DNA of 64,000 bases, from positions 32,001 to 96,000 of the forward strand of contig CAWHHI010000006.1 in assembly GCA_963829055.1 (NCBI GenBank), in the 5' to 3' direction. Under the pieces are notes generated by a model, which saw nothing but the letters and a program-made list of their open reading frames with translations, made no database searches and had not been told where the DNA came from. Position 1 is the stretch's first letter; the number at the start of each line of letters is the position of its first letter. Made by a program: the position numbers and the translations under genes. This document shows, piece after piece, positions 22,316 through 64,000 of the stretch. This stretch comes from an uncultured Gemmatimonadaceae bacterium. Lineage in GTDB: Bacteria; Gemmatimonadota; Gemmatimonadetes; Gemmatimonadales; Gemmatimonadaceae.

Positions 22316-25233
22316 TTACGCCGTCACCGCCTTGATCTCGTCGTGCAGCTCGCGGGTCTCTTCCTCCGGCTCGGCGTCCAGCTCCTTGCGAAGCCGCTCA
22401 CTGAATCGCTGATAGAGCCGCAGCGCCTGCGCTCGCTCGCCGACGCGAGCATAGCACCGCATCAGCGCGCGCGTCGCGTCCTCGTTCAGGTCGTCGCGCG
22501 CGAGCAGGCGACGATACGCATCCGCCGCTTTCGCGTTGCGCTCCTCCTTCGCGTGCCGGTCGCCGAGCTCCATCAGCGCGTCGACGAACAGGCGCTGCAG
22601 CCGATCGCGATGCTCGAGCTGCCAGTCGCCCGCCGGCTCGCCGTCCAGGAAATCGCCGCGGAATCGCGCGACCGCGCGCTCGAGTGCCGCAACGGCGCCG
22701 TCTTCCCGACGCTTCAGCGCCCGCCGCGCCGCGACGATCTCGCGCTCGAACTCCGCGACGTCGAACTCCGCGACCACTTCCGGATCGACTCGGTAGCGGT
22801 CGTTCGACGAGCGTGATCCAGTCGGGGTTGCGCAGCGCTTTGCGCAGGCGATGCAGCGTGACGTGGAAGCTGTTGCGGAGCTGCGTCGGACGACGCCTCC
22901 GGCCAGAACGCGAGGCCGACCTGCTCCTTCGTTCGACCGTCGGGATGCATCAGCAGATAGACGAGCAGCTCGCGCGGCCGCGCCGATCCCCACACGGTCG
23001 TGTCGATCGCCTCGTTGCCGACGAAGACCTGCAGCGGGCCTAACGCGAGCACGCGCAGCGTGTCCGTGGCGGGCGGAGCGACCGGCGGCGTCACGGGCAC
23101 GTCGCCGAGTACGGGCACCCGGTATTCCGCGGTCTGCATGCCGCCGGCGTCGCTCGCGATCTGAGCGACCTCCTCCATCGGCATCGTGCGGCCCTCGTCG
23201 TACATCCGCTCGTAGTAGCCGCCCAGCTGCTCGCGCGCGATCGTCGACGAGTCGCTCGCGCTCGCCGCGGTCCGACGCCGGCAGCGCGATCGCGACGCGC
23301 TCGCGCAGCGCGTCGACCGCACCCATGAGGCGAACGCCATCCGCGTATCGCTCGCGGCGATCACGAGGCCGGCGAGTCCCTCGAGGTCGAGCGCGAGTCC
23401 CCAGCCATCGCCGATCTCGAGGTGCACGCGGAGACCATCGCTCAGTCGAGCGTACGCCTCGTCGTACTCGCCCAGCTTGCAGAGCACCCTGCCGAGCATC
23501 GCGCACGAGTGCGCGAATGACGTGCGATGGCTGATCTGCCTGCCGAAGCGAACACCGTCCTCGAACATTTCGCGCGCGAGCTGGAGCTCGCCGCGCACGA
23601 CCGCGCCCCATCCGCGCCAGAAGCGGATGAAGGAGTGCAGAATCGAAAGCGGCAGCGGCTTCGCGAGCTCGTACGACTCGTCGAGCAGCTGACCGGCGAG
23701 CGACGTTGTCGCCGAGCATGATGTACGTGGCGCCGAGCTTGGAGAGCACGAACGCGATCGACGACGACGTCGCCGTGGGCTCGGAACAGCGCCAGGCTCT
23801 CCGCGAACGACTCGCGGCGACTGCTCGTAGTCGCCCTGCGCGAGCGCGCTCAGTCCGTCGGCCGCGAGCGCTCGCGCGCGCAGCAGCGGATCGACGTCCG
23901 GCGCGTTCGCGAGCGCGCGGGCGATCTGCTCGCGCGCCTGCGTGAAACTGTCCCGAGCCGTACCAATACCCCGTGCCGTACCAGTACCAGAACAGCGCAT
24001 CGGCGAAGCGCAGCGCCTCCTCGGCGCGCGACGGATCGTTCGCAGCCCACGCGGACGCGTCGCGGAGGTTGTCGTGCTCGACGGCAATGCGCGCGAGGAG
24101 TCCGGGCTCGTGTTCGCCGCCGATCAGCAGCGGCGCAAAGCGCTCGGCGAACTCGAGATAGTGGCGCGCGTGGCGCTCGCGGTAATGCGCGACGGCGCTC
24201 TGCTGGTTCAGGAGCGTCGAAGCCGTACTGCCGCACCGTCTCGAGCAGGCGATAGCGCGCGACGCCGTCGCCCGGCTTCCATGACGACGAGCGACTTGTC
24301 GACGAGCGCGGCGACGCCGTCGAGAATGTCTTCCGCCTCGAGCGGATCGCCGACGCAGACGGCTTCCGCTGCCTCGAGCGAGAAGCTTCCGGCGAAGACC
24401 GCGAGTCGGCAGAGGAGCGCCTGCTCGCGTCGATCGAGGAGCCCGTAGCTCCAGTCCATCGTGCCGCGCAGCGTTCGCTGGCGCGGTAGTGCCGTGCGAC
24501 TGCCGGTAGTGAGCAGACGAAATGCGTCGTCGAGCCGCGAGGCGATCTGCTCCGCGCGACAGCACGCGAACGCGCGCCGCGGCGAGCTCGATGGCGAGCG
24601 GAATGCCATCGAGTCGGCGGCAGATGTCGCGAACCGCGTTCGCATTCGCGTCCGTCAGCTCGAACGACGGCATCGACGCCTGCGCGCGCTCGACGAACAG
24701 CTGAATCGCTTCGGCGCCGCCGAGCGGCGGAACGAGCCACGCCGTTTCGCTCGGGATGCCGAGCGCTTCGCGGCTCGTCGCGAGGATGCTGAGCTTCGGG
24801 CATGCGCGAAGCAATTGCTCCACCAACTCGGCCGCCGCGTCGACGAGGTGCTCGCAGTTGTCGAGGACGAGGAGCATCGCGTGTCGCCGATCGTCGCGAT
24901 GAGCGCTTCCGCCGGGCGGCCGCCGCGATCGGGGATGTGGAGCGCGGTCGCGACCTCGCGGGCGAGGGTCGTCGGGTCGGCGATCGGAGCGAGGTCGACC
25001 CATCCGATTCGCGCGTATCGGCCTGCCTCCGCGGCGGCGACCTCGCGCGCGAGCCGCGTCTTGCCGCTTCCGCCGGCACCGGTCAGCGTGAGGAGACGGG
25101 TGGCGCCGATCAGGCGTCCGAGCTCGGTCAGCTCATGGCCGCGACCGATGAACCGCGTCAGGTGGACGGGTAGATCGGCGCTTGGGGACTGGTTCGAGAG
25201 GAGCGGTGGAGACGGCGGGGCAGACGTCGACAT
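22316..25233 (-). CDS. STAND/NB-ARC-like ATPase + TPR + C-terminal wHTH-BTAD transcriptional regulator (frameshifted)
   Basis: [49 protein letters not shown]-terminal [36 protein letters not shown]. Confidence 0.85.
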
Positions 25234-25396
25234 CCAGAGGGCGCTGCGAGGGGGCGGGCGACTTCGATGGGACGGCAACGATAGGAAACGGACCGCTCGT
25301 ACTCAAGCGATCTGTCCCAATTTCGTCGCGGCCGATCACTGTGCATCTCCGACTCATCGGCGACGATCGCCGACTCGGGAACACGGTCGGGGAATT

Positions 25397-25948
25397 TTAG
25401 CGCGCGGTTGGCGCGATGCCGAGACTCGCGTTGAGCGCTCGTGTGCCGCCGTTTGCGCTGCCGTTCGTCTCGCCGAGGAACGCCTCGGTTCGCCGGAGCG
25501 AGTCCGCGGGCGACCATTCGGGCAGGATCCACAGTGTGCGATCGCTGGCCGGCTGGCCGCCGTTCGAGGTTGTCGTCAGGAGGATGAGGCGGCGTACCGT
25601 GAAGTCGTCGGTCGTCGCGAGGTCGAGCGCAGCGCTGAACGCGGCGTCGCCGGCAATCAGGACGATGGACGATACGCCGATGCCCTCGATGAACCCGCGC
25701 AGCCACACGCTGACGTCCGCGTCCGCAGTGGGTGGAGGCTGCGGGACGAACACGCGGTGTGAGGTGGCGAGCCACTCGACCAGGGGCGTCCAGACCGGGC
25801 TCGCGTGGGTGTCCGCGCCGACGACCACGACCGCGGGCCCGCTGCCGCGCCGGACGTAGCGCGTAACGTGCTCGCCAACACGCACTTCGGCGCAGGGGCC
25901 GAGTGACGTGGTCGAGTTCGTGGTGCAGAGGTCGAGGAGGTTGCTCAC
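25397..25948 (-). CDS. Hypothetical protein with degenerate alpha/beta-hydrolase-like fold
   Basis: RYVRRGSGPAVVVV...W..LATSHRVFVP; no GxSxG motif. Confidence 0.5.
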   Translation of the reverse strand: MSNLLDLCTTNSTTSLGPCAEVRVGEHVTRYVRRGSGPAVVVVGADTHASPVWTPLVEWLATSHRVFVPQPPPTADADVSVWLRGFIEGIGVSSIVLIAGDAAFSAALDLATTDDFTVRRLILLTTTSNGGQPASDRTLWILPEWSPADSLRRTEAFLGETNGSANGGTRALNASLGIAPTAR

Positions 25949-26566
25949 GGGATGGAAATTCGCCGCGAGCGCTTACATGCTGCTTACGGAACCGCTGCCG
26001 GGTTTGAGGATTTCGCGAAATCTTTCGCGCGTGAGGCGAGGCCAAGCGTTCCGGGGTCGTCGCGACCTGGAAGCTCTCTCCCTCCTGTTCTTCGCGCTGC
26101 TGAGGCTTCGGGGATCCTGCCGTGGTCTCTGCGCCGGCGAGCCACGCCGGAGGGGCACCGCAACGACTTGGAAGTTTTCGCCAAGGTCGATCGACGGTCA
26201 GGCCTAGTCGAGCGTGTAGAGTGTTGCCGAACACGTCCCCTACAATGCCATCCGTAACCCCATCCGTACATCATGTCTGAGTACAGCCGGCTCGGCGTTA
26301 GGCCATGCCGGCGAACTCCGCCATTTCGGGTCTGCAATGGCTGAGTGGGCGTTAGGCACCGCCGCAACGCCGCGGCGGTGGCGCGACAAGGCGACGGTGA
26401 GATTCAGGCTCGTCGCTGTCATGCCGGTCCGTCGCTTGCAAACCGTCCGCAATCCTGCTCGAGAGGTCCAGGGCACAGCAGTGCTCGGCCTCACCAGACC
26501 ACGGTCTCGTAGGCGGTTCGTTTCGGAGCCGTGGATGAAGAGGATGCACAGCAGATGGAGGTTCGC

Positions 26567-27499
26567 ATGCGGTATTCACCACTCTCGAACTACCAGGACG
26601 CACAATTTCCGGAAGGCATGTCGGACGTACGCGGGTTCGAAGTTCGGACCCGTGATGACGAGAAGGTCGGCAAGGTGAGCGACCTGATCGCGTCTGACGA
26701 CGGGCAGATCCGTTATCTCGACGTGGACCTCGGCGGGATCTTCAATCCTCGCCACGTCCTCCTTCCAGTCGGCGCCGCTGAGGCCGATGCGCGGCGCGAC
26801 GTCGTGTGGATCTCGGGAATGTCGAAAGACGAGATCAAGGCGCTGCCGGATTACACCGGAGACGTGAGCGCGCTGACCAACGACTACGAGTCCCGCGTTC
26901 GCGGCGTGTACGCGGGCCGCATGACGGATAAGGACCTCTACGACCAGGGGAGGTTCTATGCGAACCGGGGCGGCAAGGCGGCCCGCGAGGCGCGCCTAAC
27001 GCTATCCGAGGAACAGCTCTCGGTCGGGAAACGCCAGGTCCAGGCCGGTGAGGCCGCGATCCGTAAGACAGTCGAGACCGAGCACGTGCGGAAGACGGTC
27101 CCGGTCGAGCGCGAGGAGGTCGTGGTCGAGCGCCGGCCGCTCTCGGCAGACGCCAATGCCAACGTGGACATCGGCGAGGACGAGATCCGCATTCCGCTCA
27201 TGCGCGAGGAGGTCGTCGTCGAGAAGCGCGCTGTGCCGGTCGAGGAGGTCGTGGTGCAGAAGCGCGTCGTGACAGAGGAACAGCAGGTCGAGGCCGACTT
27301 GCGCCGCGAGCGCGTCGACGATCGCTCGCTGAACAACCTCGCAGACCGCGAAGTCAGCGCCGCCGACGACGTGGGCAGCACGACCCGACGCGGCTCCAGA
27401 AAGGTCGCGGACAAGCTCGACGACATGAAGGACCGCATCGACGGGAACCCGGCCTCGAAGCCGGGCCCTGATCCGACGGATAGGCCTGAGCGCCGCTAA
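26567..27499 (+). CDS. PRC-barrel + DUF2382 (YsnF/AvaK-like) protein
   Basis: DVRGFEV..DDEKVGKVSDLI, IRYLDV; LSEEQL.VGKR, VPVEREEVVVERRP, IPLMREEV; GGAGG RBS. Confidence 0.85.
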   Translation: MRYSPLSNYQDAQFPEGMSDVRGFEVRTRDDEKVGKVSDLIASDDGQIRYLDVDLGGIFNPRHVLLPVGAAEADARRDVVWISGMSKDEIKALPDYTGDVSALTNDYESRVRGVYAGRMTDKDLYDQGRFYANRGGKAAREARLTLSEEQLSVGKRQVQAGEAAIRKTVETEHVRKTVPVEREEVVVERRPLSADANANVDIGEDEIRIPLMREEVVVEKRAVPVEEVVVQKRVVTEEQQVEADLRRERVDDRSLNNLADREVSAADDVGSTTRRGSRKVADKLDDMKDRIDGNPASKPGPDPTDRPERR

Positions 27500-27514
27500 C
27501 AGACCGACGTCGCA

Positions 27515-27557
27515 CGAATGGGGCGGCCACCGGAAATTTCGGTGGCCGCCCCATTCG
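27515..27557. terminator. Strong GC-rich hairpin, probable terminator
   Basis: CGAATGGGGCGGCCACCG - loop - CGGTGGCCGCCCCATTCG just after the stop codon. Confidence 0.65.
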
Positions 27558-27631
27558 CATCGAACGCCCCACAGGTGTACGTCGCCTGGAGCCGGTCGTA
27601 AGATTCCGCTCAACCCGTTACCCCGCCGCTC

Positions 27632-29722
27632 ATGCGCCGACTCGCTCTCGTTTCGCTCATCCTCGCGACTGGGCTCGATGCCCGCGCTCAGGCTACCGCT
27701 CAGGCTCCAACCGATCGCCGCGGCATCACCGCGGAGGACTACTTCGGGTTCGTGTTCGCGGCGGATCCGCGGCTGTCGCCGGACGGGAGTCAGGTCGTCT
27801 ACGTGTCGTCGCGCGTCGACCGCGCGCGGAATCGCCGCGTGCCATCCATCTGGATCGTCCCGACCGACGGCAACGCGCCGCCGCGAATGATCGTCGACGA
27901 GGCGTTTTCAGCGAGTGCGCCTCGCTGGTCGCCGGACGGGAAGACGATCGCGTTCACGTCGGGGCGCGTCATCGCCGACAGCACCGGCACGACGGGAACG
28001 CAGCAACCTGCACCGGGACGCGCGCAGCTCTGGACCGTCGCCGCAGGCGGCGGCGCGCCACGACGGATCACGAATGTCGCGAACGGCGTGTCGGGCTGCT
28101 CCTGGTCGCCTAACGGCGCGCAGTTCGTCTGCCTCGCGCGAACCGGACCGAGCGACACGCTCAACACGGGACCCGAGCGCAGCGACGTGCGGCACTACAC
28201 GAGCCTCACGTACAAGTTCAACGATACGGGTTGGTACGACGACAAGCGCTCGCATCTCTGGATCATCGACGCCAGCAGCGGTGCGGCCCGTCAGATCACG
28301 AGCGGCGATTCGTGGAACGACACGGACGCGCAGTGGTCGCCGGACGGGTCGCGCATCGCGTTCGTCTCGGACCGTACCGGCATGGAGTTCGACGAGGGGC
28401 ACAACAGCGACATCTGGACGATCCCGGCTTCCGGCGGGAGCCTGACGAAGATCACGCCGAGCAAGGAGCGTGATACGTCGCCGGTGTGGTCGCCTGACGG
28501 GAAGTCGATCGCGTTCGTGAGCGCGGAGGACGAGGACGCGCCGCCGCAGCTCTACATCACCGAGAGCAGTGGCACTGGAACGCCTCGGCTCGCGGCCAAG
28601 TCGCTCGACCTGCTGCCCGGCAATCTGCAGTGGGCCGAGAACGGTCGCGCGCTCTACTTCGACACGGGCGTCAAGGGTGAGCTGCACGTCTTTCGCGTTG
28701 ACGTCGCCACCGGGGCGCGTCCGTCAGGTGACGACCGGCGCGCGCGGCGTTCGTGCCTCGGACGTGAGCCCGACGTTAGGCAGGATGGTCTACCTCGCCA
28801 ACGACTTTCAGCATCTCGACGACGTCTACTCGGCCACGCTCGACGGGAAGGGCGAGCGGAAGCTCACGGACGTGAACGCGGCGCTCTGGAAGACGCTCGA
28901 CGCTCGCGCCGGTGCAGCGCATGACGTTCAAGGGCGCTGACGGCTGGGACGTCGACGGCTTTCTCGTCAAGCCGTTAGGCTGGACCGCCGGCACGAAGTA
29001 CCCGATGATCCTGAGCATTCACGGCGGGCCGTCCGGCCAGTACGGCGTGGACTGGTATCACGAGTTCCAGGTCTACGCCGCGAAGGGGTATGCCGTGTTC
29101 TTCACGAACCCGCGCGGCTCGACCGGCTACGGGCGGAAGTTCCAGCGCGGCATCGAGCTGCAGTGGGGCGGCAACGACTACATCGACATCATGAACGGCG
29201 TGCGCGCGGTCGACCGCCGCGAACCCGTGGATCGACACGACGCGCCTTGGCGTCACCGGTGGCAGCTACGGCGGCTACATGACGAACTGGATCGTCGGCC
29301 ACACGGGGCTGTTCAAGGCGGCGGTGACGCTGCGCTCGATCTCGAACTTCATCAGCGACGACGGCACCCGTGACGGCGCGTACGGCCACAAGGGCGATTT
29401 CGGGGGAGACATCTTCCAGAAGTACGATCTCTTCTGGGATCGCTCGCCGCTCAAGTACGTGCAGAACGTGACGACGCCGATTCTCGTGCTGCACTCCGAC
29501 AACGACTATCGCGTGCCGATCGAGCAGGGCGAGCAGTGGTTCCGCGCGCTGAAGCATTTCGGGAAGACGGCGGAGATCGTGTTCTTCCCGCGCGAGAATC
29601 ACAATCTGACGCGGACGGGCGAGCCGCGGCACATCGTGGAGAGCATGAACTGGCAGCTGTATTGGTTCGATCGATACTTGTTAGGCAATGCCAACGCGGT
29701 GGCGCCGGATCACCGTAAGTAG
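27632..29722 (+). CDS. S9 family peptidase with PD40 propeller (frameshifted)
   Basis: Signal peptide, WSPDG repeats, IHGGP, NPRGSTGYG, GGSYGG, D.RVP, H. Confidence 0.88.
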
Positions 29723-29744
29723 ATCTGCGCGGACCGTGCGGCTC

Positions 29745-30084
29745 GGATCATCGCGCCGGGGTCGGTGAGAACTACGATTGGGCGGATCTGTACGGCGAAA
29801 CTACCGGATACGGCTTTGCATTCAGGCATCATCGCGCCGCGGCCTGGGGAACGGCGATCTCGCGGATGACGCGGAAGAAGCAGGATAGCGCTCCGAGGTC
29901 GGCTCCGCTCGCCACGAGCCGGGATTTCTTGGGAACGGCCGCTCGGGAGACTCACTGCGTCCCGAGCGGCCGTTCCCATTTTCTAAGAGTCCGGCGAGAG
30001 CCAGCGTCAGTGCAAAGCCGTATCCGGCCGTTTTGCAGTTCATCCGCCCAATCGTCGTTCCCACCGGCCCCGGCGCGATGATCC
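29745..30084. repeat. ~340-bp nested palindromic element with ~75-bp imperfect terminal inverted repeats
   Basis: 29745-29820 is the near reverse complement of 30011-30084. A degenerate third copy starts at ~29828, and an inner perfect hairpin spans 29930-29978. Confidence 0.75.
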
Positions 30085-30091
30085 AGACAGG

Positions 30092-32003
30092 CTAGAGCTC
30101 GATCTCCGCGCCCATCTCCACTACTCGGTTCGGCGGAATCCTGAAGTAGCGCGTCGCTCGGCGGGCGTTGCGCGCCATGCGTGCGAACAATCGCTCTCTC
30201 CATATCGCCATCCCCGGACGGTCCGTCGCCAGCAGCGTCTCGCGGCCCACGAAGAACGTCGTCGTCGCCAGGTCGATGTCCAATCCCTTTCGCGCGGCAG
30301 CGTTCGCACCACGCCAAGGATCTCCGGATCCTCGGCGAAGCCGTGCCGCGCCGTGACGCGATAGACGTTAGGCGAGAGCGTCTCGATCATCACGCGATCG
30401 TCCGCCGCGACGTAGGCGTACGCTTCCGTGAACATCGCCAGGAACACGATACGCTCGTGCAGCACCTTGTTGTGCTGCAGGTTGAGCACGAGCGCGTGCG
30501 GCACGAGGTTCGGATCGCGCGTCAGGTAGACCGCCGTTCCGGGCACGCGCATCGGCGCTGCACGTCTCGATGCGCTTCGGCAGCTCGGCCGTCGACAGCG
30601 CCGACTCGGACAGACGCTCGGCGAGAATCGCGCGCCCGCGCTTCCACGTCGTCATGATCGTGAATACCACCGCCGCGATCACGAGCGGGAACCAGCCGCC
30701 GCTCGGAATCTTCGTCACGCCCGCGGTCCAGAAGCCGAGGTCCATGACGAGAAATGCCGCCGCCAGCGCGACGGTGGCCGGGATGACTCCAGTTCCAGCG
30801 CGTACGCGCCACGACGGCGAACAGGATCGTCGTGAACACCATGTCGGTCGTCACCGCCACACCGTACGCCGCCGCCAGGTTGCTCGACGAACGGAAGCCC
30901 GACGACGAGACCGACGCACGCGATCATCAGCAGCCAGTTGAGCCCGGGGATGTAGATCTGGCCGATGTGCGTCGACGACGTGTGCTCGATGTCCACGCGA
31001 GGCAGATAGCCGAGCTGCACTGCCTGACGAGTGAGCGAGAACGCGCCGGAGATCACGGCCTGCGACGCGATCACCGTTGCGAAGCGTCGTGAGAACGACG
31101 AGCGGGATCAGCGCCCACTCCGGCGCCAGCTGAAAGAACGGATGCTCGGCCGCTCTGGGATCGGCGATGACGAGCGCGCCCTGGCCGAAGTAGTTGATCA
31201 GCAGCGCCGGCAGCACGAGCACGAACCACGCGAAGCGGATCGGTCGCTTGCCGAAGTGGCCCATGTCCGCGTAGAGCGCCTCGCCTCCGGTCACCGCGAG
31301 GAACACGGAGCCGAGCACGAGGAAGCCGGCGACGCCGTTGCGCGCGAAGAATCTCACGGCGTGCAGTGGATTCACCGCCGTCAGCACGGACGGGTGCGCG
31401 ATGATGTGCGTCACCCCTAACGCCGCGAGCACGAGCGAACCACAGCAGCATCACCGGCCCGAAGATCGACCCGATGCGCGCCGTCCCGCGACTCTGCACG
31501 GCGAAGAGCACGATCAGAATCGCGATCGTGATCGGGACGATGTACGGCCGAAACACCGGCGTGGCGACCTCGAGCCCTTCGACGGCGCTCAGTACGGAGA
31601 TGGCCGGCGTGATCATCCCGTCGCCGTAGAGCAGCGACGCACCGAACAGCCCGATCAGGACGAACGACGCTCGGCGTCCCGACGGTTTGTCGCGCGGCGG
31701 CGAGACGAGCGCCGTGAGCGCGATCATGCCGCCTTCGCCGCAGTTGTCCGCGCGCATGACGAACGCGAGGTACTTGACGGAGATGACGAGGATGAGCGCC
31801 CAGACGATGAGCGACAGCAGCCCGAGCACGTTCTCGGGCGTCGGCGTCAGCCCGTGCTTCCCGTGAAGCGACTCACGGAGCGCGTAGATGGGGCTCGTGC
31901 CAATGTCGCCGTAGACGACGCCAAGCGCGGCGAGTGACAGTCCGGCGAGCGCCTGCCCGCTGGGCTTCTCGTCAGGCGCGTGGTGATTGGGGTCGTGGCT
32001 CAA
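30092..32003 (-). CDS. kup: KUP/HAK/KT potassium transporter (frameshifted)
   Basis: [73 protein letters not shown]. Confidence 0.93.
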
Positions 32004-32560: not shown

Positions 32561-35218
<2,658 letters not shown>

Positions 35219-55245: not shown

Positions 55246-55319
55246 GACGAATCTCCTGTGGACTACGGCGTTGGTATTCTATCCCGGGTAATGGTGGGGG
55301 AGTATTCTCACCGTCACTC

Positions 55320-56288
55320 ATGCGATACTCGAGATTGGCCTTGCTCGCCGTCGCCGTCGGATGCGGGAGCGACAAAGCCACCGCACCGTCGGACGTGGCC
55401 ACGGATCCGGCTCGCGCCGTTTTCGTGACGAGCGACATCCAGCACTTCTGGGCCGCGTACGACGCCAACGCCGGTGGCGGAACCTCGGCGTTTCAGGCCG
55501 AGTACCTCGACCGCGCGTCTCCGGGGCTGCGCGACTTCATCGCGTCGCGCAACCTGACCGCGGCGAACCTGGCCTCCATGGTCCGGACGTACCCGCGCTA
55601 CTTCTCGAGCATTCGCGCGTCGACGTTGACGCTGGCGTCGGATGAGACCCTGCAGAATCGAATCCGTGAGGGCTACAGGAAGATCGCGGGCATGTACACC
55701 GCGGCCGTGTTTCCGCCCGTGACGTTCCTCATTGGCCGCTTCAGCACCGGTGGAACGACGTCGACGAACGGGATGCTCGTGGGGCTCGAGTTCTACGCGA
55801 TCACGCCGTCGACGCCGCTGGACGAGCTGGGCCAGTTCCAGCGCGACAACGTCCGGGCGCTCGACAGCCTGCCGATCATCGTCGCGCACGAGCACACGCA
55901 CATTCTCCAGGCGCGAGCCGGCGGCGTGTTCAACAAGGCAAGGAAGAACCTGCTCGAGCAATCACTGCTGGAGGGCGGCGCGGATTTCGTCGCGTATCTC
56001 GTGACGGGCGGCAACATCAACGCACGCCTGCAGGCCTACGGGATTCCCCGCGAAGCGGCCCTCTGGGCCGAGTTCAAGACGCAAATGCGCGGGACGGACG
56101 TGAGCCGCTGGCTCTACAACCAGGGCAACGCGACCGCCGACCGCCCGGGCGACCTGGGGTATTTCATCGGCTACCGCATTGCGGAAGCGTTCTACGCGCG
56201 TACGGCGGACAAGCGTCAAGCGCTCCTTGGGATCATCGACGTGAGCAACGCCGATCTGTTCCTCACTCAGAGTGGCTACGCGCCGTAG
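55320..56288 (+). CDS. Putative Zn-dependent peptidase lipoprotein (DUF2268/GldB-like)
   Basis: Lipobox AVGC; AHEHTH, EGGADF, DLGYFIGY.I. Confidence 0.7.
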   Translation: MRYSRLALLAVAVGCGSDKATAPSDVATDPARAVFVTSDIQHFWAAYDANAGGGTSAFQAEYLDRASPGLRDFIASRNLTAANLASMVRTYPRYFSSIRASTLTLASDETLQNRIREGYRKIAGMYTAAVFPPVTFLIGRFSTGGTTSTNGMLVGLEFYAITPSTPLDELGQFQRDNVRALDSLPIIVAHEHTHILQARAGGVFNKARKNLLEQSLLEGGADFVAYLVTGGNINARLQAYGIPREAALWAEFKTQMRGTDVSRWLYNQGNATADRPGDLGYFIGYRIAEAFYARTADKRQALLGIIDVSNADLFLTQSGYAP

Positions 56289-56349
56289 CTGGCGCGAGGT
56301 TGGCGCGGGAAAGACACCGGTGCCGGTCAGGCGACTCCTCGACTACCGG

Positions 56350-56712
56350 GTCGTGGTAGCCGGCGACCTCGCGGAAGAGCCGCGCGGTGCTGCCCACCCC
56401 ACCGGCCCAATCGCGCCGGACCTCATTACACTTCGTAGCACCGCGGCACTGGCGCCGACGACGTTGTTCGGGACGGTTTGCCTGAGGCGCGACGTCGCGG
56501 GGGTCGGCGGGTTCGAGGATGCGCGTCGTCGATCGACGAGACTTCGCGCCTTCGGCCTCGATCTCACCGTTCTCGATCTGTCGGCACTCGTGCAGGCGCG
56601 AACGGCTTCCAGCAGACGCGAGGACATCGCGAAGCTGCCGATGCTCGAAACACTGCTCGCGCTCCCCGCTCTTGAAGAGCGATATCGCGAGCTCGCTGCC
56701 AATCGTTCATAA
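56350..56712 (+). pseudogene. Remnant resembling the C-terminal half of a nucleotidyltransferase-like hypothetical family
   Basis: DVAGVGGFE...FGLDL.VLDL..L..AR....R.ED...L..L; no clear start or N-terminus. Confidence 0.35.
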
Positions 56713-56736
56713 CATCGTACTTACTACATAGTCATC

Positions 56737-58578
56737 GTGTCCGAAGACTCCCCAATTTCCGCCTTCGCCGAGCTCGGGCTCGACCCGCGCATCACCGCGA
56801 CACTCACCACGCTCGGGTACGAGGAGCCGACGCCGATTCAGCGCGAGGCCATCCCCGCCCTGCTCGCCGGCCGCGATGTGCTCGGGCAGGCGGCCACTGG
56901 CACCGGCAAGACCGCCGCGTTCACGCTGCCGCTCATTCAGCGCGCAGCCCTCGGCGTCGATGGCGACTCCGTCATCGATCATGACGAGGACGGCGCGCCG
57001 AGGGATGACGGCAAGGGACCATCGGTGCTCATTCTGGTGCCGACTCGCGAGCTCGCGATGCAGGTCGGCGAAGCGGTGCACAAGTACGGCAAAGGCCTCG
57101 GCATCCGTGCGGTGCCCGTGTACGGCGGACAGGACATCCGCCGTCAGCTTCGCGCGCTCGAGCGCGGGAGCGACGTCGTCATCGCCACACCGGGGCGCGC
57201 GCTCGACCACATCCGCCGCAAGACGATGTCGTTAGGCAACGTGCGCGCCGTCGTGCTCGACGAGGCGGACGAGATGCTCGACATGGGGTTCGCCGAAGAT
57301 CTCGAGTCGATCCTTTCCGCCGCGCCCTCGGTTCGGCAGACGGCGCTCTTCTCGGCCACGCTGCCGCCGCGCATTCGCGACATGGCCGAGCGGCATCTGA
57401 CCGACCCGGTGCGCCTGTCGATTCCCACCGAGCGCACGGCGAGCGGCGCGATTCCGCGGGTGCGCCAGATGGCGTACATCGTGGGCCGGTCGCACAAGAT
57501 CGCGGCGCTGGGACGCATTCTCGACGTCGAAGCGCCGACGCTGGCGTTCATCTTCTGTCGCACGCGCACCGAGGTCGATGAGCTGACCGAGACGCTCAAC
57601 GGTCGCGGCTATCGCTCCGAAGCGTTGCACGGCGGCATGTCGCAGGAGCAGCGCGATCGCGTCATGCGGCGCGTCCGCAGCGGTGCGACCGATCTGCTCG
57701 TCGCGACAGACGTGGCGGCGCGTGGACTCGACGTCGAGCAGGTGTCGCACGTCGTGAACTACGACGTACCGTCGGCGCCGGAAGCGTACGTGCATCGCAT
57801 CGGCCGCACGGGGCGAGCCGGACGCGAAGGCGTCGCGATCACGCTGGCCGAGCCGCGCGAGCATCGGTTGCTGCGCAACATCGAGTTCATCACGAAGCAG
57901 AAGATCGAGGTCGCGACTGTTCCGACGGTCGCGGATCTGCGCGCGCGACGCCTCGAGCTCACTCGTGGCTCGCTCGAGGAAGCGCTGATGGAGGGCGAGG
58001 ACTCGCTCGAGACGTATCGGGTGGTCGTGAACGCACTCGCCGCTGAGTACGATGTCGTGGACATCGCGGCGGCAGCGGTGAAGCTCGCCGACGAGCGTCG
58101 TCGCGATGGTGACGCGCCCGAGGAGGTCGAGATTCCCGCGGCACACGTGCGTGAGCGGTCGCGCGAGGGCAGGGAAAGCCGCGGCCCGCGTGAGTCGCAG
58201 GGCCGAGGTGAGCGGGAGGGTCGCGGCGAGCGCGAAGGCCGTGGCGATCGGCCCGAGCGCGGTGCCCGTCCCGAGCGCACGCCACGTCGCGGCAGTGGTC
58301 GCGGACGTCCGCCCGAGTGGGACGTGACGCGCGTGTACGTGGGCGCGGGTCGCAAGGCGGGGGTTCGGCCTGGTGACCTCGTCGGCGCCATCGCGAACGA
58401 AGCACGCGTGGACTCGAGCAACATCGGAGCGATCGAGATCGCTGATCGTTTCTCGCTCGTCGAGGTTCCGGAGCCGATGGCCGAGCGGATCATCGACGCG
58501 CTGCGAAACACGACGATCAAGGGCAAGCGTGTGATGGTACGTCGTGATCGAGACTTCGAGGGTGGAAGCCGGGACTGA
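56737..58578 (+). CDS. deaD: DEAD-box RNA helicase DeaD/CsdA with DbpA-type RNA-binding domain
   Basis: PTPIQ, ATGTGKT, PTRELA, TPGR, DEAD, SAT, ARGLD, HRIGRTGRAG, RPGDLVGAIANE. Confidence 0.93.
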   Translation: MSEDSPISAFAELGLDPRITATLTTLGYEEPTPIQREAIPALLAGRDVLGQAATGTGKTAAFTLPLIQRAALGVDGDSVIDHDEDGAPRDDGKGPSVLILVPTRELAMQVGEAVHKYGKGLGIRAVPVYGGQDIRRQLRALERGSDVVIATPGRALDHIRRKTMSLGNVRAVVLDEADEMLDMGFAEDLESILSAAPSVRQTALFSATLPPRIRDMAERHLTDPVRLSIPTERTASGAIPRVRQMAYIVGRSHKIAALGRILDVEAPTLAFIFCRTRTEVDELTETLNGRGYRSEALHGGMSQEQRDRVMRRVRSGATDLLVATDVAARGLDVEQVSHVVNYDVPSAPEAYVHRIGRTGRAGREGVAITLAEPREHRLLRNIEFITKQKIEVATVPTVADLRARRLELTRGSLEEALMEGEDSLETYRVVVNALAAEYDVVDIAAAAVKLADERRRDGDAPEEVEIPAAHVRERSREGRESRGPRESQGRGEREGRGEREGRGDRPERGARPERTPRRGSGRGRPPEWDVTRVYVGAGRKAGVRPGDLVGAIANEARVDSSNIGAIEIADRFSLVEVPEPMAERIIDALRNTTIKGKRVMVRRDRDFEGGSRD

Positions 58579-59065
58579 TTTGCTGACGTACGACGTCGTC
58601 CCGACGCCGATCGGCCGCCTCATCGTCGCCAGCGACGGCTCGGCCATCGCGGGGGTGTGGATGGCGAACGCGAATCCTCGTGACGCAGCCTGGGCGAGTC
58701 ATCGCGGGACCGACGCGTTGCTCGCCCAGGCGCGCGAGGAACTGCTCGCGTACTTCGACGGGCGACTCCGCGACTTCACCGTTCCGCTCGCGCCTAACGG
58801 GACGGAGTTTCAGCGTCGCGTGTGGGATGCGCTGCGCGAGATTCCGTTCGGGACGACGATCAGCTACGCGGCGCTCGCGGGTCGCCTGAACAACACGGCG
58901 GCGCTGAGAGCCGTCGGCGCGGCGAACGGTCGTAACCCGATCCCGATCATCATCCCGTGTCACCGCGTCATCGGCAGTGACGGATCGCTGACCGGGTTCG
59001 GCGGAGGGATCGAGCGGAAGCGGTGGCTGCTGCAGCACGAGGGCGCGCTTCTTACCATCTTATGA
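58562..59065 (+). CDS. ogt: Methylated-DNA--protein-cysteine methyltransferase
   Basis: TPIG, GTEFQRRVW, IPFG, RAVGAANGRNP, PCHRV. Confidence 0.93.
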   Translation: MEAGTDLLTYDVVPTPIGRLIVASDGSAIAGVWMANANPRDAAWASHRGTDALLAQAREELLAYFDGRLRDFTVPLAPNGTEFQRRVWDALREIPFGTTISYAALAGRLNNTAALRAVGAANGRNPIPIIIPCHRVIGSDGSLTGFGGGIERKRWLLQHEGALLTIL

Positions 59066-59125
59066 CTATGTAGGGTGGCCGGCGCGCGATACTGAGTCCA
59101 TGACTCAGCGTGATCAGCGCGCCTC

Positions 59126-60073
59126 ATGACGGCGACCGCCGCACCTGCGGCGTCCGCGTACCGCGCGATAGACGGCGTTCACTGGTGCCTTCGCATCGGT
59201 GCGGCGGCGTGCTTCATCGGGCACGGGGCGTTCGGCGTCATCACGAAGTCGGCGTGGCTGCCGTATTTCGCCGTGACAGGCATTTCGCCGGACGTCGCAT
59301 ACGCGCTCATGCCGGTGATCGGAACGATCGACATCGTCCTGGGGCTCACGGTCCTGCTGTCGCCTCGGCCGATCGTGCTGCTCTACATGAGCGTGTGGGC
59401 GCTGTGGACCGCGCTGCTCCGGCCGCTCGCTGGTGAAACCGTGTTCGAGGCGATGGAGCGGGCGGGGAACTACGGCGTGCCGCTCGCGATGCTCCTCCTC
59501 GTCGGGTTACCCAGGAACTGGCGGCGCTGGCGCGGGTGGTTTCGAGTGTCTGAAGGAGCGCCGGTAAATGCCGCGACGCTCGTCCGCGTGCTGCAGTGGA
59601 CGACGGCCATGCTGCTGTTCGCGCATGGCGCGCTCGCCGCGATCACACAGAAACCGCTGTTCGCGGTGCACTACGCCGCGTTAGGTCTGCCTGCCGCGAT
59701 CGCGCCGGCGATCGGATACGTCGAGATGGCGGTCGGGCTCTCGGTCCTCGTATTTCCGATCCCGGCTCTGCTCATCGCGATCGCGGTGTGGAAGGCCGCG
59801 ACCGAGGCGTTGTTTCCGATCGCCGGAGCGCCAATGTGGGAGTTCGTCGAGCGAGCTGGCAGCTACGCCGCACCGCTGGCCCTCGCGCTGCTGGTGGCCA
59901 GCCGCAGCCCTGTGCGCACCCAAGGAGAGGTTTGTGGTAGATCGTTAGGCATTACGTCATTCCGAGCGGAGCGCCGAAGGCGCGCAGTCGAGGAATCGCG
60001 ACTCGTCCCGATAGAGGGCCCCTCTAGCCGTATGATCGCGATTCCTCGACTCGCTGACGCTCGCTCGGAATGA
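59126..60073 (+). CDS. Multi-pass membrane protein with two DoxX-like repeats; 3' end runs into a palindromic repeat
   Basis: Duplicated pattern LR...A..F.(G/A)HG...I..K and E..ERAG.Y..PL. Confidence 0.65.
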   Translation: MTATAAPAASAYRAIDGVHWCLRIGAAACFIGHGAFGVITKSAWLPYFAVTGISPDVAYALMPVIGTIDIVLGLTVLLSPRPIVLLYMSVWALWTALLRPLAGETVFEAMERAGNYGVPLAMLLLVGLPRNWRRWRGWFRVSEGAPVNAATLVRVLQWTTAMLLFAHGALAAITQKPLFAVHYAALGLPAAIAPAIGYVEMAVGLSVLVFPIPALLIAIAVWKAATEALFPIAGAPMWEFVERAGSYAAPLALALLVASRSPVRTQGEVCGRSLGITSFRAERRRRAVEESRLVPIEGPSSRMIAIPRLADARSE

Positions 60074-60092
60074 CACGGCCGCTCGGAATGAC
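59956..60092. repeat. Full-length GTCATTCCGAGC..GCTCGGAATGAC palindrome plus one extra right end
   Basis: Arms nearly identical to 53570-53686; inner TAGAGGG/CCCTCTA hairpin; second GCTCGGAATGAC at 60081-60092. Confidence 0.85.
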
Positions 60093-60115
60093 AACACCAA
60101 CCAAGGAGACCCACG

Positions 60116-61126
60116 ATGCTACTCACACATGCCTTGTTGACGTTCCTCGCGGCGGCGAGCCCGCCCGATAGCCTGTTGTCGGCCGACTCGCTGCTCGTCG
60201 AGTTGCGGAAGGGCGGCTACACGATCGTGTGGCGTCATACGGCGACCGACAGAAGTGTCCAGGAGCCAATGGACTATCAGAACACTCCGCGCTTTCAGCA
60301 GCGGAACTTGACCGACCGCGGCATCGCCGACGCGAAGGCGGTCGGAGCGATCTTCAAGAGCCGTGGCATCCCGGTCGGCGAGGTGCTGTCGAGCCCAATG
60401 TTCCGGACGCGCGAGACCGCTGAATACGCGTTCGGGCACGTGGAGTCCACGCCGCTGCTGCGTCAGGTCGATCGGTCACCGGAACAGCTGCGGTTGATCG
60501 CCACCGAGCCAGCCGCCGGAACGAATCGCGTGCTCGTGACGCATCACTTCGTGATCGAGCAAAACGTGCCGGGCATCAAGCCGGGGATGATCGGCGAAGG
60601 CGAAGCGGTGGTGGTGAAAGCAACCGGCCGCGACGGGCTGCGCCTCGTCGGCATCTTCAAGATGGCCGACTGGCAACGGCTGAGCGAGCAGCTCGACAAG
60701 TCCGCATCGACGAGCACCAACGGCGGAACCGCAGCCAGGACGTTCGTTCACGGAGGGGCCGCTCCGGCTGGCCCTACGGCGTCGCCGGCCGCCACCGCAG
60801 CGTTGCTCCAGGCCCCGCAGAATGTCGCGATCACCAACTATCTCGAGGCCTTCAACAGCGGCGACGCAGCGCGCATGCGCGAGTTCTACGAGCGATCCGT
60901 CGTGCCGAATCCGACGCGCACGATGGACGAGCGGATGGAAGTCTACAATCGACTGAAGGGCGACCTCGGAACAGTGACTGTGATTTCGGCCGAGGCTGTC
61001 GAGACGAATCGTGTTGCGGTGAAGGTTCAAGCGAGCAAGGGAACCACCGCCGTCATCACGTTCGCCCCTGAAACGCAGCAGCCATACCGCCTCGTGACGA
61101 TCAGCTTTGCGATCGTCGGCGGATGA
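60116..61126 (+). CDS. Secreted histidine phosphatase family protein with an extra C-terminal domain
   Basis: AAGGAG RBS; WRH, QRNL..RG, SSP..R..ETA, LVTH. Confidence 0.75.
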   Translation: MLLTHALLTFLAAASPPDSLLSADSLLVELRKGGYTIVWRHTATDRSVQEPMDYQNTPRFQQRNLTDRGIADAKAVGAIFKSRGIPVGEVLSSPMFRTRETAEYAFGHVESTPLLRQVDRSPEQLRLIATEPAAGTNRVLVTHHFVIEQNVPGIKPGMIGEGEAVVVKATGRDGLRLVGIFKMADWQRLSEQLDKSASTSTNGGTAARTFVHGGAAPAGPTASPAATAALLQAPQNVAITNYLEAFNSGDAARMREFYERSVVPNPTRTMDERMEVYNRLKGDLGTVTVISAEAVETNRVAVKVQASKGTTAVITFAPETQQPYRLVTISFAIVGG

Positions 61127-61274
61127 GCCTAACAACGTTAGGTGTCGCGAGAGGCTAACGTGGCATGCACCGCGTGGCTCCGTCAACAACGACGCGAGTA
61201 GTCCGTCGACCGTCTGACACTTCCACCGATTCGCCGCCGTAAGTGATTTGAATCACCGGCGTCGAGGTCGGATC

Positions 61275-62273
61275 ATGGAAAGCCCGTCGAACACTCAGGC
61301 GACCCGCTCAGCGAGCAGGTCGCCCGAAAGTGTCCCACTCCCCTCCGACAGCATCATGATGTGGGGTGCCAAGGGATCAGGGAAATCGGTGTACATCGCT
61401 TCCCTGGTCTACTGGAGTCCTCCCGCTGATGCCGCGCGTCGCGTGTGCGTGCTCCCCGCGAATTCAACGGCGGCCGAGTGGGTGGCGGATCGCGTCAGAA
61501 GCCTGACGGCCGCGGGAATCGGGAATCGGGAATGGGGAATCGGAGCCTCCGCGGGCAGTTCGATTCCCGATTCCCCATTCCCGATTCCCGAGGTGTACAA
61601 GACGCTCACCGAACGCCGCCTCGACTTCCGTCTCTACACCCTGCCCACGACGGCCGGGCCCATAACGCGGCTACTCAACACCGAGTCGCGCTACGAGGCG
61701 AGCCTCAACTTCTGGGACGTGCCTGGCGAAGTGTACGACGGCGACATCCCGCCCAACATCCTGCGCGAGATGACCCGCGCGCGCGGGCTCATCCTGCTCA
61801 TCAACCCGAGCTTCGTGCCTAACGAAGGCCGAGAGCGCTACTACATGCGCTTCTTCGACCGCACGCTCGGCCGACTCAAGTTCGCGCTCGCCGAGGCTGC
61901 GCGTCGAGGGGAGCGGGTGCCGTTCGATCCGCGCACGAACCAGCTCACGATACCGGTTGCGGTCTGCCTGAGCCAGATCGATCGGTCGCCGCAGTTCATG
62001 GACGCCGAGCCGAAGGCGCTGTTCGAAGAGACCGTCGGCGACACCGCGCCCATCCTGTACTCGTGGCTCACGACGTTCGACATCTTCAAGCTGTCGGCGT
62101 TAGGCCGGCCGCTGCGCCGAGTCGGCGATCGCGAGGTGCTCGACGGCGAGCCGCGGCCGAAGTTCGTTCACTTGCCGATCTCGTGGATCGTGAGTCGGAC
62201 GGGCGGCGCGGAAGGCGGACGGCGGATGGCGGATGGCGGAGGAACAGCGCGGGTATCTGGGGGGCGGGCATGA
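61275..62273 (+). CDS. TRAFAC-class P-loop GTPase (conflict-system type) carrying an in-frame repeat insertion
   Basis: G1 WGAKGSGKS, G3 FWDVPGE, GLILLINP, G4-like VCLSQID, G5 LSALG. Confidence 0.75.
   Translation: MESPSNTQATRSASRSPESVPLPSDSIMMWGAKGSGKSVYIASLVYWSPPADAARRVCVLPANSTAAEWVADRVRSLTAAGIGNREWGIGASAGSSIPDSPFPIPEVYKTLTERRLDFRLYTLPTTAGPITRLLNTESRYEASLNFWDVPGEVYDGDIPPNILREMTRARGLILLINPSFVPNEGRERYYMRFFDRTLGRLKFALAEAARRGERVPFDPRTNQLTIPVAVCLSQIDRSPQFMDAEPKALFEETVGDTAPILYSWLTTFDIFKLSALGRPLRRVGDREVLDGEPRPKFVHLPISWIVSRTGGAEGGRRMADGGGTARVSGGRA
61513..61590. repeat. Inverted heptamer element (78 bp) inside the GTPase CDS
   Basis: CGGGAATCGGGAATCGGGAATGGGGAATCG - 18 nt - CGATTCCCGATTCCCCATTCCCGATTCCCG. 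Confidence 0.85.
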
Positions 62274-64000
62274 CCACCGCAACTGCACCTCGCCGCGCGA
62301 TCTGGGGGCTCGTCAACGACGGGTACGCGCTCGTCGCCAAGACCGCGAACCTCACGCCCGACGAAGCATTCGAGCTGTGTCGCGTGCCCGACATCGGCGA
62401 CCCGAGCGCCTACCTCGACTTCGGCGTCGCGTATCTGCACGCTCCGAAGTGGGGGCACGTGTTCGCGCGATACTTCACGAACGCCGAACGTGACTCCGCA
62501 GGGCGTGCGTCGCTCGTGTACGACGTCGTCGCGCTCAGCGACCACGACTTCGCCGCGCTCGGCAACGATCCTTTCGCCGCGCTGCCTCCGCTCGCGAGCG
62601 ATCGCCGGCCGGAGCGATTCGGCGAGCTGCCCCTCCCGACATTTACTCGGCGCGACAATGGCTCCGAGGCCGCGCGACTCACCGAGCTGCTGGCGCGTGA
62701 GGATCACGCGGCGATTACCCTGCTGCTCGGAGCCCTCCTCGCTGGCGATCGCGTGCTCTGCCTTGCGAACGGAATACGCAGTGAGACTGTCGAATGTCTC
62801 ACGCTACTGCTCCCTCCGTCTCTGCGAACGCTGGTCACGTTTCAGATGCCGACGGTCGACTTTCCGAAGCACGCGCCACGGCTCACCGTGGCCGAGCGCG
62901 CGCATGCGCTACTCGTGGAGCGCGACTGGACGGCGGTGCTGCCCCAGGACGCGAGCGATCCGCGACTCGCGGAAGCGACGGCGACAGCCACCAGGCTCCT
63001 GGCGTTAGGCGCGAATCCACTTCGTCTGCAGCGGGCCTGGAGTCCGATCGAGAATGCTTCGTCCGGTGCGTCGAGTCGCGGGACGCAAGTCGTCCAGCCC
63101 GACCTGGGCGTCGCGGTCGCTGCCATGCTTCGCATGGACCAACTGCACGAGGCACTGCGCGCGGGAGACCTGAGACGCGCGGTGCTCGTCGCCGCACGAG
63201 CCGAGACGCTGGACGAGCGCGTCAGTTTGTCGGACGCGATGTTCGCGCAGTCCACGCCGGAACGCATCGCGACCGCGCTCGGAGACGTCGTGCGCGGCGA
63301 GCAACGTGGCGCCTGGGCGGCAGTGCAGGCGGTGGTCGGCAGCGTCGTCGCGAAACGCGAACGGCAACCCGAGCACTTCGCGTCGTTCTTCACCGTGCTG
63401 ATCGACTGTCTGTGCAGTGTCCCACCGAAGCCAGATGATGCGACTGCCCGACTCGTCCTCGTTACACTCGCGTGCGCGGCGGCGTCGCTCGATGATCTCG
63501 AGCGCTTTCTCGACGTCGCCGACCCTACCCTCCCTTGGGAAAGCGCCTGGCGCGACGGCAGCGCACGCTGGGTAAAGGGACGCTCGGCTGTCGCACGCGT
63601 CTTCGATGCGCTGGCGGCGAAGGGCGCGACGTACGGCGATGCGATCGACGGCGTGCACGCGATCGGAACGGTTACCGCGAAGGCAACCGTTGGTCGAAGC
63701 CGAGATCGTGCCGCGGCGCTCGGCCTCGCACTCGTCAGGCGGACGCTGCGCGAGCGCGCGACACTCGAGCCCCCCGATCGACTCGGCGCACTCGTTGGTG
63801 GGCTCATGCACATATGGTCGCCCGACGTCATCGGTGTCGCGCCGAGCGTCGCGTCCCCGGCCGATGAGACCGACCGCACGCTGCGCCGCTTCCTGGGAGT
63901 CGGCGAACCGCTGTCCTCGAGCCATGACCCGCGGCGGCTCGCAGCTGAACTGTCGCGCACGGTCGGTGAGTCAGGCGACGGCGGGGACACGGAATTACTG
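62270..64000 (+). CDS. Large GTPase-associated (GAP1-like) protein, open to the window edge; absent from the ORF track
   Basis: ATGA overlap with the GTPase stop. Hand translation gives 577 codons without a stop: DGYALVAKT, RDSAGR, GNDPF, LLPPSLRTLVTF, then a long helical region. Confidence 0.7.
   Translation, partial: MTTATAPRRAIWGLVNDGYALVAKTANLTPDEAFELCRVPDIGDPSAYLDFGVAYLHAPKWGHVFARYFTNAERDSAGRASLVYDVVALSDHDFAALGNDPFAALPPLASDRRPERFGELPLPTFTRRDNGSEAARLTELLAREDHAAITLLLGALLAGDRVLCLANGIRSETVECLTLLLPPSLRTLVTFQMPTVDFPKHAPRLTVAERAHALLVERDWTAVLPQDASDPRLAEATATATRLLALGANPLRLQRAWSPIENASSGASSRGTQVVQPDLGVAVAAMLRMDQLHEALRAGDLRRAVLVAARAETLDERVSLSDAMFAQSTPERIATALGDVVRGEQRGAWAAVQAVVGSVVAKRERQPEHFASFFTVLIDCLCSVPPKPDDATARLVLVTLACAAASLDDLERFLDVADPTLPWESAWRDGSARWVKGRSAVARVFDALAAKGATYGDAIDGVHAIGTVTAKATVGRSRDRAAALGLALVRRTLRERATLEPPDRLGALVGGLMHIWSPDVIGVAPSVASPADETDRTLRRFLGVGEPLSSSHDPRRLAAELSRTVGESGDGGDTELL

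Follow-up and report, generated by a model that had tools for sequence, protein, structure and literature searches.

GTTAGGC, a genome-wide and locally spaced DNA word of Gemmatimonadaceae that may serve as a self-recognition tag

What does a bacterium gain from a short DNA word that is written again and again into its genes, in its rarest codons? The question is raised by a 64,000-nucleotide stretch of the genome of an uncultured Gemmatimonadaceae bacterium (contig CAWHHI010000006.1, positions 32,001 to 96,000), referred to here as the window and numbered G000:C6:32001-96000 in our set, in which the heptamer GTTAGGC occurs 36 times between positions 23038 and 63010, with 24 copies on the forward strand and 12, read as GCCTAAC, on the reverse. 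An order-3 Markov model ranks it first among the window's 7-mers, with 36 copies where 2.6 are expected. A first-pass annotation, made by a model from the letters of the sequence, had listed these copies and reported none in bases 1-21,100; every position has been reproduced exactly, and no copy precedes 23,038. The word belongs to the hyper-abundant, genome-wide DNA tags, and to its enrichment we add four properties: its spacing, its compensatory turnover, its lineage-specific dialects and the motif-free methylome of a plasmid-bearing strain. The function that we tentatively favour is that of a self-tag in DNA exchange.

The assembly as a whole (G000; 7.78 Mb in 20 contigs, 86% complete) holds 5,630 copies of GTTAGGC on both strands, 5,004 of them within the octamer CGTTAGGC, and they are present on all 20 contigs. 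The RecA of the assembly shows 84–90% identity to RecA records from the Gemmatimonadales or Gemmatimonadaceae, which places the genome in that order and probably in that family. The 4,241 genes called with high confidence contain 3,142 copies, whereas ten synonymous-codon resamplings give 134–169, an excess of ∼20-fold over this codon-aware null. The word accounts for 1,386 of the 2,319 TTA codons in the called genes (60%), for 511 of 2,979 CTA and 862 of 6,557 CCT codons, and for 205 of 723 TAA and 147 of 1,463 TAG stops; all four of its stop-free reading frames are in use. Its density is 0.72 per kb within called genes and 0.74 outside them, the gene caller covering ∼75% of the genome and clipping gene starts. 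Equal density inside and outside genes, the use of all stop-free frames and the excess over the codon null together lead us to conclude that the signal acts on the DNA. The first-pass annotation had argued for selection on DNA rather than on protein from the rare-codon spelling of the copies, proposing a codon-aware null and the share of TTA codons as checks, and its argument is borne out by both; within the window, 25 of the 36 copies lie in coding-like frames, 17 as TTA-GGC, six as CCT-AAC and two as CTA-ACG. The word is missing from both 16S genes of the assembly and is scarcer in genes with low GC content at third codon positions.

The functional unit extends one base beyond the heptamer. 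Among the listed contexts in the window, C or T precedes 34 of the 36 copies, read on their own strand, and A or G precedes none; 30 belong to the CGTTAGGC type, the others being TGTTAGGC. When codon and next residue are held fixed in the null, CGTTAGGC is 18-fold enriched in G000, followed by CGTTAGGT (8.1), TGTTAGGC (5.9), CGTTATGC (5.0), CGTTAGGG (3.2) and CGTCAGGC (2.4), whereas substitutions at word positions 2, 3, 5 and 7 do not rise above expectation and the flanks of CGTTAGGC carry no extra consensus. Mutational decay does not account for the variants, as there is no enrichment of the products that synonymous decay would yield most easily. The near-miss CGTTGGGC is even depleted (149 seen, 282 expected), and we therefore regard the enriched variants as tolerated forms of the signal. 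It is better described as the 8-mer CGTTAGGC with graded variants than as a 7-mer.

Copies of the word avoid one another. Relative to flanks at 4–10 kb, the density of pairs in G000 is 0.20–0.23 at separations below 75 bp and 0.45–0.47 at 125–175 bp, rising to 0.72 at 200–250 bp, 0.84–0.93 at 300–600 bp and ∼1 beyond. The avoidance is equal for copies in the same and in opposite orientations. It extends to the variants CGTTAGGT, CGTTAGGG and CGTTATGC; it is not seen with CGTCAGGC, CGTTGGGC, CGTGAGGC or CGTTCGGC, and nothing similar is found for six control words. Samples from relatives behave similarly, with pairs closer than 200 bp numbering 6 against 27 expected in congeners, 26 against 59 in G014 and 26 against 49 in genus g40. 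A pooled sample of g43 and the named plasmids discussed below shows the deficit at 100–300 bp (48 seen, 94 expected) and none below 100 bp (41 seen, 47 expected); attC sites and short intergenic clusters contribute close pairs to this sample.

Comparison between species shows that what is conserved is one site per neighbourhood rather than a fixed position. In ∼0.93 Mb from two congeners (G001 and G005), of which 0.69 Mb could be aligned to G000, 170 of 312 functional sites are common to G000 and G001 and 166 of 250 to G000 and G005, compared with 168 of 606 and 155 of 518 for control words. The first-pass annotation had also suggested conservation at orthologous positions as a check: GTTAGGC is identical at 243 of 405 such positions, against 209 of 790 for GCTCGGC, which spells the same dipeptide with the commonest Leu codon. 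For the window itself, 86 of 149 sites are kept in five congeners (sites counted once per congener), against ∼25% of all 7-mers. When a congener lacks a site that G000 has, a new one lies within 250 bp in 34 of 122 cases for G001 and 20 of 67 for G005; beside shared sites this is about five times rarer, at 8 of 136 and 9 of 138, which gives an odds ratio of ∼6 (p = 1e-6 and 2e-5). No compensation of this kind is seen for control words (44% vs 40%, 40% vs 41%).

Local saturation of this kind could also arise inside the cell, through motif-biased repair or gene conversion in which a MutH-, Vsr- or nickase-like factor takes the word-bearing strand as template. An unmethylated word in a heteroduplex would be recognised, and sites would ratchet in until a neighbour within ∼200 bp directed the repair. 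Elhai's ratchet for HIP1, the cyanobacterial hyper-abundant octamer GCGATCGC, predicts just such saturation, with no gain beside an existing site, in the part of PMC4390886 accessible to us. The process would act on all replicons, as is seen, and would fit the orientation-blind exclusion, the compensatory turnover, the depletion of CGTTGGGC and a symmetric GC halo: within 75 bp of sites, on both sides, GC at fourfold sites lies 1.0–1.4 points over the gene mean, compared with at most 0.5 points near control words (up to 0.9 in single finer bins). The halo is small and no more than suggestive; it fits local gene conversion, and is in line with the uptake tag proposed below too. On the other side, the published ratchet requires methylation, and none is reported at the word and no common methyltransferase was found in the families profiled. 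Nor is divergence convincingly lower near the word, since fourfold-site divergence near shared sites is just 0.3–3 points less, about as for control words. MutL, whose C-terminal domain we considered as a reader and set aside, occurs as a single copy in 67 of 69 genomes, whether these are rich or poor in the word. We consider such repair an unlikely but serious competitor.

The distribution of the word among relatives is patchy. All seven genomes of genus g1 hold 2,501–5,112 copies of CGTTAGGC, and G014 holds 6,360. In an even sample of 301 genomes from the phylum (the unpublished G013, G078, G117 and G198 counting only among the poor), 18 have at least 110 copies and 283 have fewer than 100; none of the 102 sampled genomes from outside the Gemmatimonadales exceeds 70. 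Genus g40 alone spans the range, with ∼4,000 copies each in G235 and G292 and 66 in G288, and density among relatives runs from ∼30 to 1,250 per Mb. On a quick RpoB tree (27 rows, that of G288 being 30% filled; 4 of 30 genomes were unmatched), enriched genomes are interspersed with poor ones and occupy at least four distinct positions. Two named plasmids of Gemmatirosa kalamazoonensis are rich in the word, with 701 copies on NZ_CP007130 and 778 on NZ_CP007129, where the reversed control occurs 19 and 20 times, and a 15-kb integrase-bearing unit on G299:C4 carries 14, which is full density; viral relatives of this unit proved uninformative (23–38% identical, six copies in 14 loci). Independent assemblies and a named cultured strain thus carry the word, as expected of the lineage-specific, genome-wide signal that the first-pass annotation had proposed. 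Motif-poor genomes have few copies, often in co-oriented arrays, and the one array that was read is an attC array (L013). The top 7-mers of motif-poor G288 (G288:C168 1-60000), AAAGCAG, CAGAAAG and AACCCTG, probably represent one local repeat family.

Enriched genomes also differ in the variants that they accept. In a first dialect, 25 of 29 enriched genomes accept CGTTAGGT, at 0.07–0.56 of the exact word, and show no excess of CGTTGGGC (0.43–1.31 of control); ratios in low-density genomes are raised by background. A second dialect, in G235, G292 and G299, is nearly devoid of CGTTAGGT (0.005–0.007) and has CGTTGGGC at 2.4–6.1 times control. G018 is intermediate, and the sample from the named G. 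kalamazoonensis plasmids follows the second dialect. On the quick RpoB tree the latter falls in two non-sister groups, both near first-dialect genomes, and the existence of such dialects therefore implies a reader with evolving specificity, through transfer or convergence. Dialects that cut across the RpoB tree, like a mobile accessory gene, can also be counted in favour of a repair factor.

Graded, lineage-specific tolerance of variants resembles a binding landscape, and the word might instead be the site of an abundant, sequence-specific nucleoid or DNA-protecting protein that covers ∼200–400 bp, by its footprint or by spreading, so that one site per neighbourhood is selected. The scale of exclusion, the replaceable positions and the equal density on every replicon agree with this, and such a role has been proposed for HIP1 in the accessible text of PMC5861425. 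The copies, however, show no helical phasing in G000 (Rayleigh p >0.17 for periods of 9.5–11.5) and no preferred loop distance in the pair-density analysis; the ∼30–1,250 per Mb spread and the poor g40 congener would be odd for essential architecture, and there is no candidate protein. A nucleoid role also seems unlikely to us, much as repair does.

Chi and KOPS (FtsK-orienting polar sequences) are likewise short, asymmetric and over-represented, and a polar signal read by a translocating helicase-nuclease or by FtsK deserves consideration, the word being a non-palindromic 8-mer. Chi and KOPS are strongly polarised along replichores, and the copies of CGTTAGGC lack this polarity. On contig C16 of G000, the leading strand carries 430 of 753 copies (57%), which is within the spread of 345 words of equal composition (mean 50.6% leading, standard deviation 8.8). 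The one-contig chromosome of G299 is near even, with 120 forward and 110 reverse copies in 18 samples, and one named plasmid, halved after the fact, splits 60–64% in the sample taken. The replichore check suggested by the first-pass annotation, which had listed Chi as an analogue, goes against such polarity, as there is no gene-strand-corrected link between word orientation and skew across windows (rho 0.03, p = 0.79), although contig C16 taken by itself gave p = 0.056. Opposite-orientation copies, moreover, exclude one another as strongly as same-orientation ones, and an AddA-like G000 protein was matched, in a strict first look, in at least 9 of 80 genomes and at least 4 of 11 rich ones. A slight strand bias is possible, but Chi or KOPS behaviour is not seen, and this explanation is largely refuted. 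The AddA-like helicase lies at L006:8245-10329 (G000:C15), and most of the family may lack AddAB. A dif-like site at G000:C16 560791-560818, on the GC-skew maximum and ∼20 kb from xerD, marks the terminus; XerC/D was rejected as the reader, the arms of this site (C16:560,791) being unlike TTAGGC.

With HIP1 the word shares hyper-abundance, use of all frames and conservation. HIP1 is, however, a palindrome tied to two methyltransferases, whereas CGTTAGGC is asymmetric, reported as unmethylated in the one methylome available and spelled in the rarest codons. The function of HIP1 is itself debated among transformation, repair and nucleoid roles, and the parts of PMC13756078 and bioRxiv 2024.09.10.611283 available to us tie it to transformation. 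HIP1-like abundance and saturation could point to an orphan DNA methyltransferase with CGTTAGGC as its target, and methylation had been among the options of the first-pass annotation. SMRT (single-molecule real-time) sequencing detects 5-methylcytosine poorly. The SMRT methylome of G. kalamazoonensis lists three N6-methyladenine motifs only, RGATCY, ATGCAC and CCAGN7TCA (PMC3974934), and GTTAGGC is not among them despite the 701 and 778 copies on the two large plasmids. None of the three methyltransferase families profiled tracks the word: PF00145 is in none of five rich genomes, PF01555 is absent from G000 and G299, and PF02384 is absent from G000, an assembly 86% complete. We regard a methyltransferase target as very improbable.

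The first-pass annotation had further pointed out that the word fits the integron core-site consensus GTTRRRY. The letters are indeed identical to those at both ends of attC sites in a relative, but the enriched variants do not follow the consensus overall and the integron integrase IntI does not track the word. As the attC core of this phylum, the word might be read by IntI or a derivative of it. The attC array L013, from a motif-poor relative, has GCCTAACA and CGTTAGGC at its opposite ends, and these are the two enriched first-base variants in G000. Near attC-like hairpins, G000 also has an IntI-like gene that departs from the usual catalytic residues at Lys and at the first His. IntI matches above the curated cut-off are, however, found in genomes of every kind (7 of 11 rich, 8 of 17 intermediate, 21 of 32 poor); the degenerate IntI clade is present in motif-poor G288 too; G000 shows no enrichment of the GTTRRRY members CGTTAGAC, CGTTAAGC and CGTTGGGC; and inverted pairs are depleted. 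Unlike attC cores, the genomic copies of CGTTAGGC are lone sites in genes, without hairpin or partner and with an abundance independent of IntI; G000 has 49 attC-like hairpin candidates, both strands counted, against its 5,630 copies of the word. IntI, or a protein derived from it, is an improbable reader. The IntI-like gene itself (L154:12008-12985; G000:C20 208008-208985, minus strand), with other residues in place of the catalytic Lys and of the first HxxR His, lies upstream of co-oriented cassette-like genes with attC-like hairpins, and forms a supported clade with degenerate copies in G288 and G293 and less degenerate ones in G001 and G114.

Any model must yield a site that is strand-blind, replaceable and locally saturating, that has evolving specificity and that bears no methyl mark. 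A tag of the type of the DNA uptake sequences (DUS) and uptake signal sequences (USS) fits best, because these have most of the traits and close USS are non-additive. DUS and USS are non-palindromic, occur about once per kb on both strands and in genes, are conserved, and are missing from recently acquired DNA and from rRNA genes, according to the accessible parts of PMC2397512, PMC7811141 and PMC1939737, and CGTTAGGC resembles them in each of these respects apart from its scale and layout: it is 7–8 bp long, has no terminator-type inverted pairs, has close pairs depleted rather than enriched, and is patchy within one order. The lack of terminator pairs places CGTTAGGC outside DUS and USS, just as its lack of palindromy and methylation places it outside HIP1. 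Dialects exist for DUS, and the sequence-specific receptor in Neisseria is ComP. For Haemophilus influenzae, the accessible text of PMC7811141 reports that two USS within 100 bp give no added uptake.

On this analogy we propose that CGTTAGGC is a protein-read self-tag for DNA exchange, a reading somewhat short of an even chance in our estimation. A receptor in the path of DNA uptake or integration would prefer double-stranded DNA with CGTTAGGC in either orientation; tagged fragments from kin would replace untagged alleles through homologous recombination, and the word would accumulate wherever the protein sequence permits. A second copy within ∼100–250 bp would add little, so that copies would space out and substitute for one another. 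That the reader works in uptake and that recombination spreads the word are what we infer from the enrichment, conservation, spacing, turnover and dialects described above, and from absence of the word from foreign DNA. In soil populations generally, recombination is linked to ComEC loci in the accessible part of PMC7305173.

Several observations weigh against an uptake tag. No uptake gene profiled (ComEC, FimT-like pilin, pilins) separates rich from poor genomes. Close inverted pairs are common for USS, with 23% within 100 bp as far as the accessible text of PMC7811141 goes, and are depleted here: only 101 of 5,610 gaps in G000 are shorter than 100 bp, 44 of them between opposite orientations. 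The word is shorter than DUS or USS and lacks a flanking consensus. Megaplasmids and the small integrase-bearing element are at full density, which an intracellular process would explain equally well. Conversion tracts in Neisseria, at ∼0.6–1.7 kb in the part of PMC2397512 available, are longer than the 200-bp scale seen here. Our literature search found no paper showing transformation in Gemmatimonadota, nor, in a search without most subscription papers or supplements, any published account of GTTAGGC in that phylum.

Candidate readers were sought among the uptake genes and elsewhere. G000 has ComEC, a ComEA-type match and pilins, and what we take to be DprA- and ComF-like motifs, and the competence machinery is just as present in motif-poor genomes. 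ComEC occurs in 28 of 28 rich and 49 of 52 poor genomes and was rejected as a marker of the reader. Lamin-tail-domain proteins do not track the word either, being found in 29 of 80 genomes and missing from G014, G235 and G292. The FimT-like minor pilin is present in 30 of 30 genomes, and an alignment of 27 (G000, G206 and G010 being left out as frameshifted or weak) gave no clean split of residues by motif; nor was a rich-only cluster found among 38 pilins of five genomes, with loci for 30 of 57 matches. This pilin (G000:C8 164923-165331, frameshifted in the assembly, and L279-L306) has a C-terminal SRxGR(V/I)R that is conserved across the Gemmatimonadales and that may resemble the end of a DNA-binding pilin.

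A more speculative proposal, which we think less probable than repair or a nucleoid role, combines elements of several explanations. A methylation-independent and horizontally spreading factor, perhaps derived from the core-binding machinery of integron integrases, may write the attC core genome-wide with a radius of ∼200 bp and lineage-specific dialects, by biased conversion or by uptake. If true, it would represent a new class of genome-writing signal that joins integron chemistry to self-recognition, in a major soil phylum.

The left part of the window stands apart. The native arm, 21107..64000, bears the 36 exact copies and eight functional variants (three CGTTAGGT, one CGTTAGGG and four CGTTATGC), whereas positions 1..21106 have none (P ∼2e-8 at the rate of the right arm). 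The motif-free arm carries second copies of ftsK, cut at the join, and of DAHP synthase, trpG and aminopeptidase genes, which are 46–60% identical to the copies on C16, and its tetranucleotide profile is atypical. Beyond the join, 21,107-24,175 is 92.5% identical to a stretch of C2 whose left neighbour differs; before it, a public contig matches 17,556-21,070 with 113 differences and then diverges into other sequence. The sequencing runs contain at most 0.24 of the junction words; a missing bridging contig alone proves nothing. The arm is probably DNA of another organism joined during assembly, the alternative being a true large integration. Similar gaps or ends are seen at G000:C6 5441-53107 (which holds the window arm), G000:C6 591809-623330, G000:C11 7377-46790 and the first 3 kb of G000:C4, where the join interrupts a canonical integron integrase gene; foreign codon use and duplicate housekeeping genes mark these contig ends, which are probably assembly chimeras. 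The word is missing from foreign segments, but with three large gaps probably chimeric this is a loose test of 'self'. Its absence revealed three foreign contig ends in G000, and the word can thus serve as a check on binning.

Within the native arm the copies fall mainly in recognisable genes, for which Pfam supports the first-pass labels of aldehyde dehydrogenase, amidohydrolase, NCS1, DeaD, Ogt, K+ transporter and a DPP-IV-type propeller; mmsA and hydA are that annotation's own names. Four copies (28108..29686, forward; one CCT-AAC, three TTA-GGC) lie in pieces of a frameshifted peptidase gene and three (33066..34516, forward; one CTA-ACG, two TTA-GGC) in a MacB/FtsX permease gene. The reverse-strand copy at 37976..37982 provides the TAG stop of a kinase open reading frame (37978-38964), as read directly from the sequence. 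The aldehyde dehydrogenase gene has three copies (41858..42185, forward), encoding Pro-Leu-Gly, Leu-Pro-Asn and Ala-Leu-Gly; three more (45205..46617, forward) lie in genes of the dihydroorotate-dehydrogenase family and of an amidohydrolase; and the four in the NCS1 permease gene (47249..48189, forward) are all TTA-GGC, most being retained in five congeners. The deaD copy (57231..57237, forward; Ser-Leu-Gly) is exact in four of five congeners, and the ogt copy (58792..58798, reverse; Ala-Pro-Asn on the forward strand) in all five.

Other features of this arm deserve mention. The region 41341-53505 is a pyrimidine-catabolism-type cluster (aldehyde dehydrogenase, DHO_dh family, amidohydrolase, NCS1, carbon-nitrogen hydrolase), unbroken in congeners and split by inserted genes in the window. 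Many genes in window and genome are frameshifted (peptidase, kup, NCS1, ComEA, FimT), which fits long-read errors. A palindromic repeat resembling repetitive extragenic palindromes, with ends GTCATTCCGAGC and GCTCGGAATGAC, occurs at 59956-60095 and 53570-53706 and has 147 near-full copies in the genome. A 344-bp element at 29744-30087, almost wholly self-complementary (∼-228 kcal/mol as RNA) and with 46 near-full copies, is probably a miniature inverted-repeat transposable element. Such mobile repeats were considered and rejected as a source of the word, as both dispersed palindromic families lack it inside and have it in their flanks at only ∼1.6–1.7 times expectation.

Genome-wide tags that override codon choice are known from few groups, the Neisseriaceae, the Pasteurellaceae and the cyanobacteria, and their purpose is still argued. 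CGTTAGGC adds an independent example from an abundant soil phylum. Its natural contrasts, with rich and poor genomes in one genus and two dialects, its measurable radius and a cultured type strain make models of drive, repair and nucleoid organisation separable. If the word is indeed an uptake tag, it should aid the transformation of a phylum that is without genetic tools.

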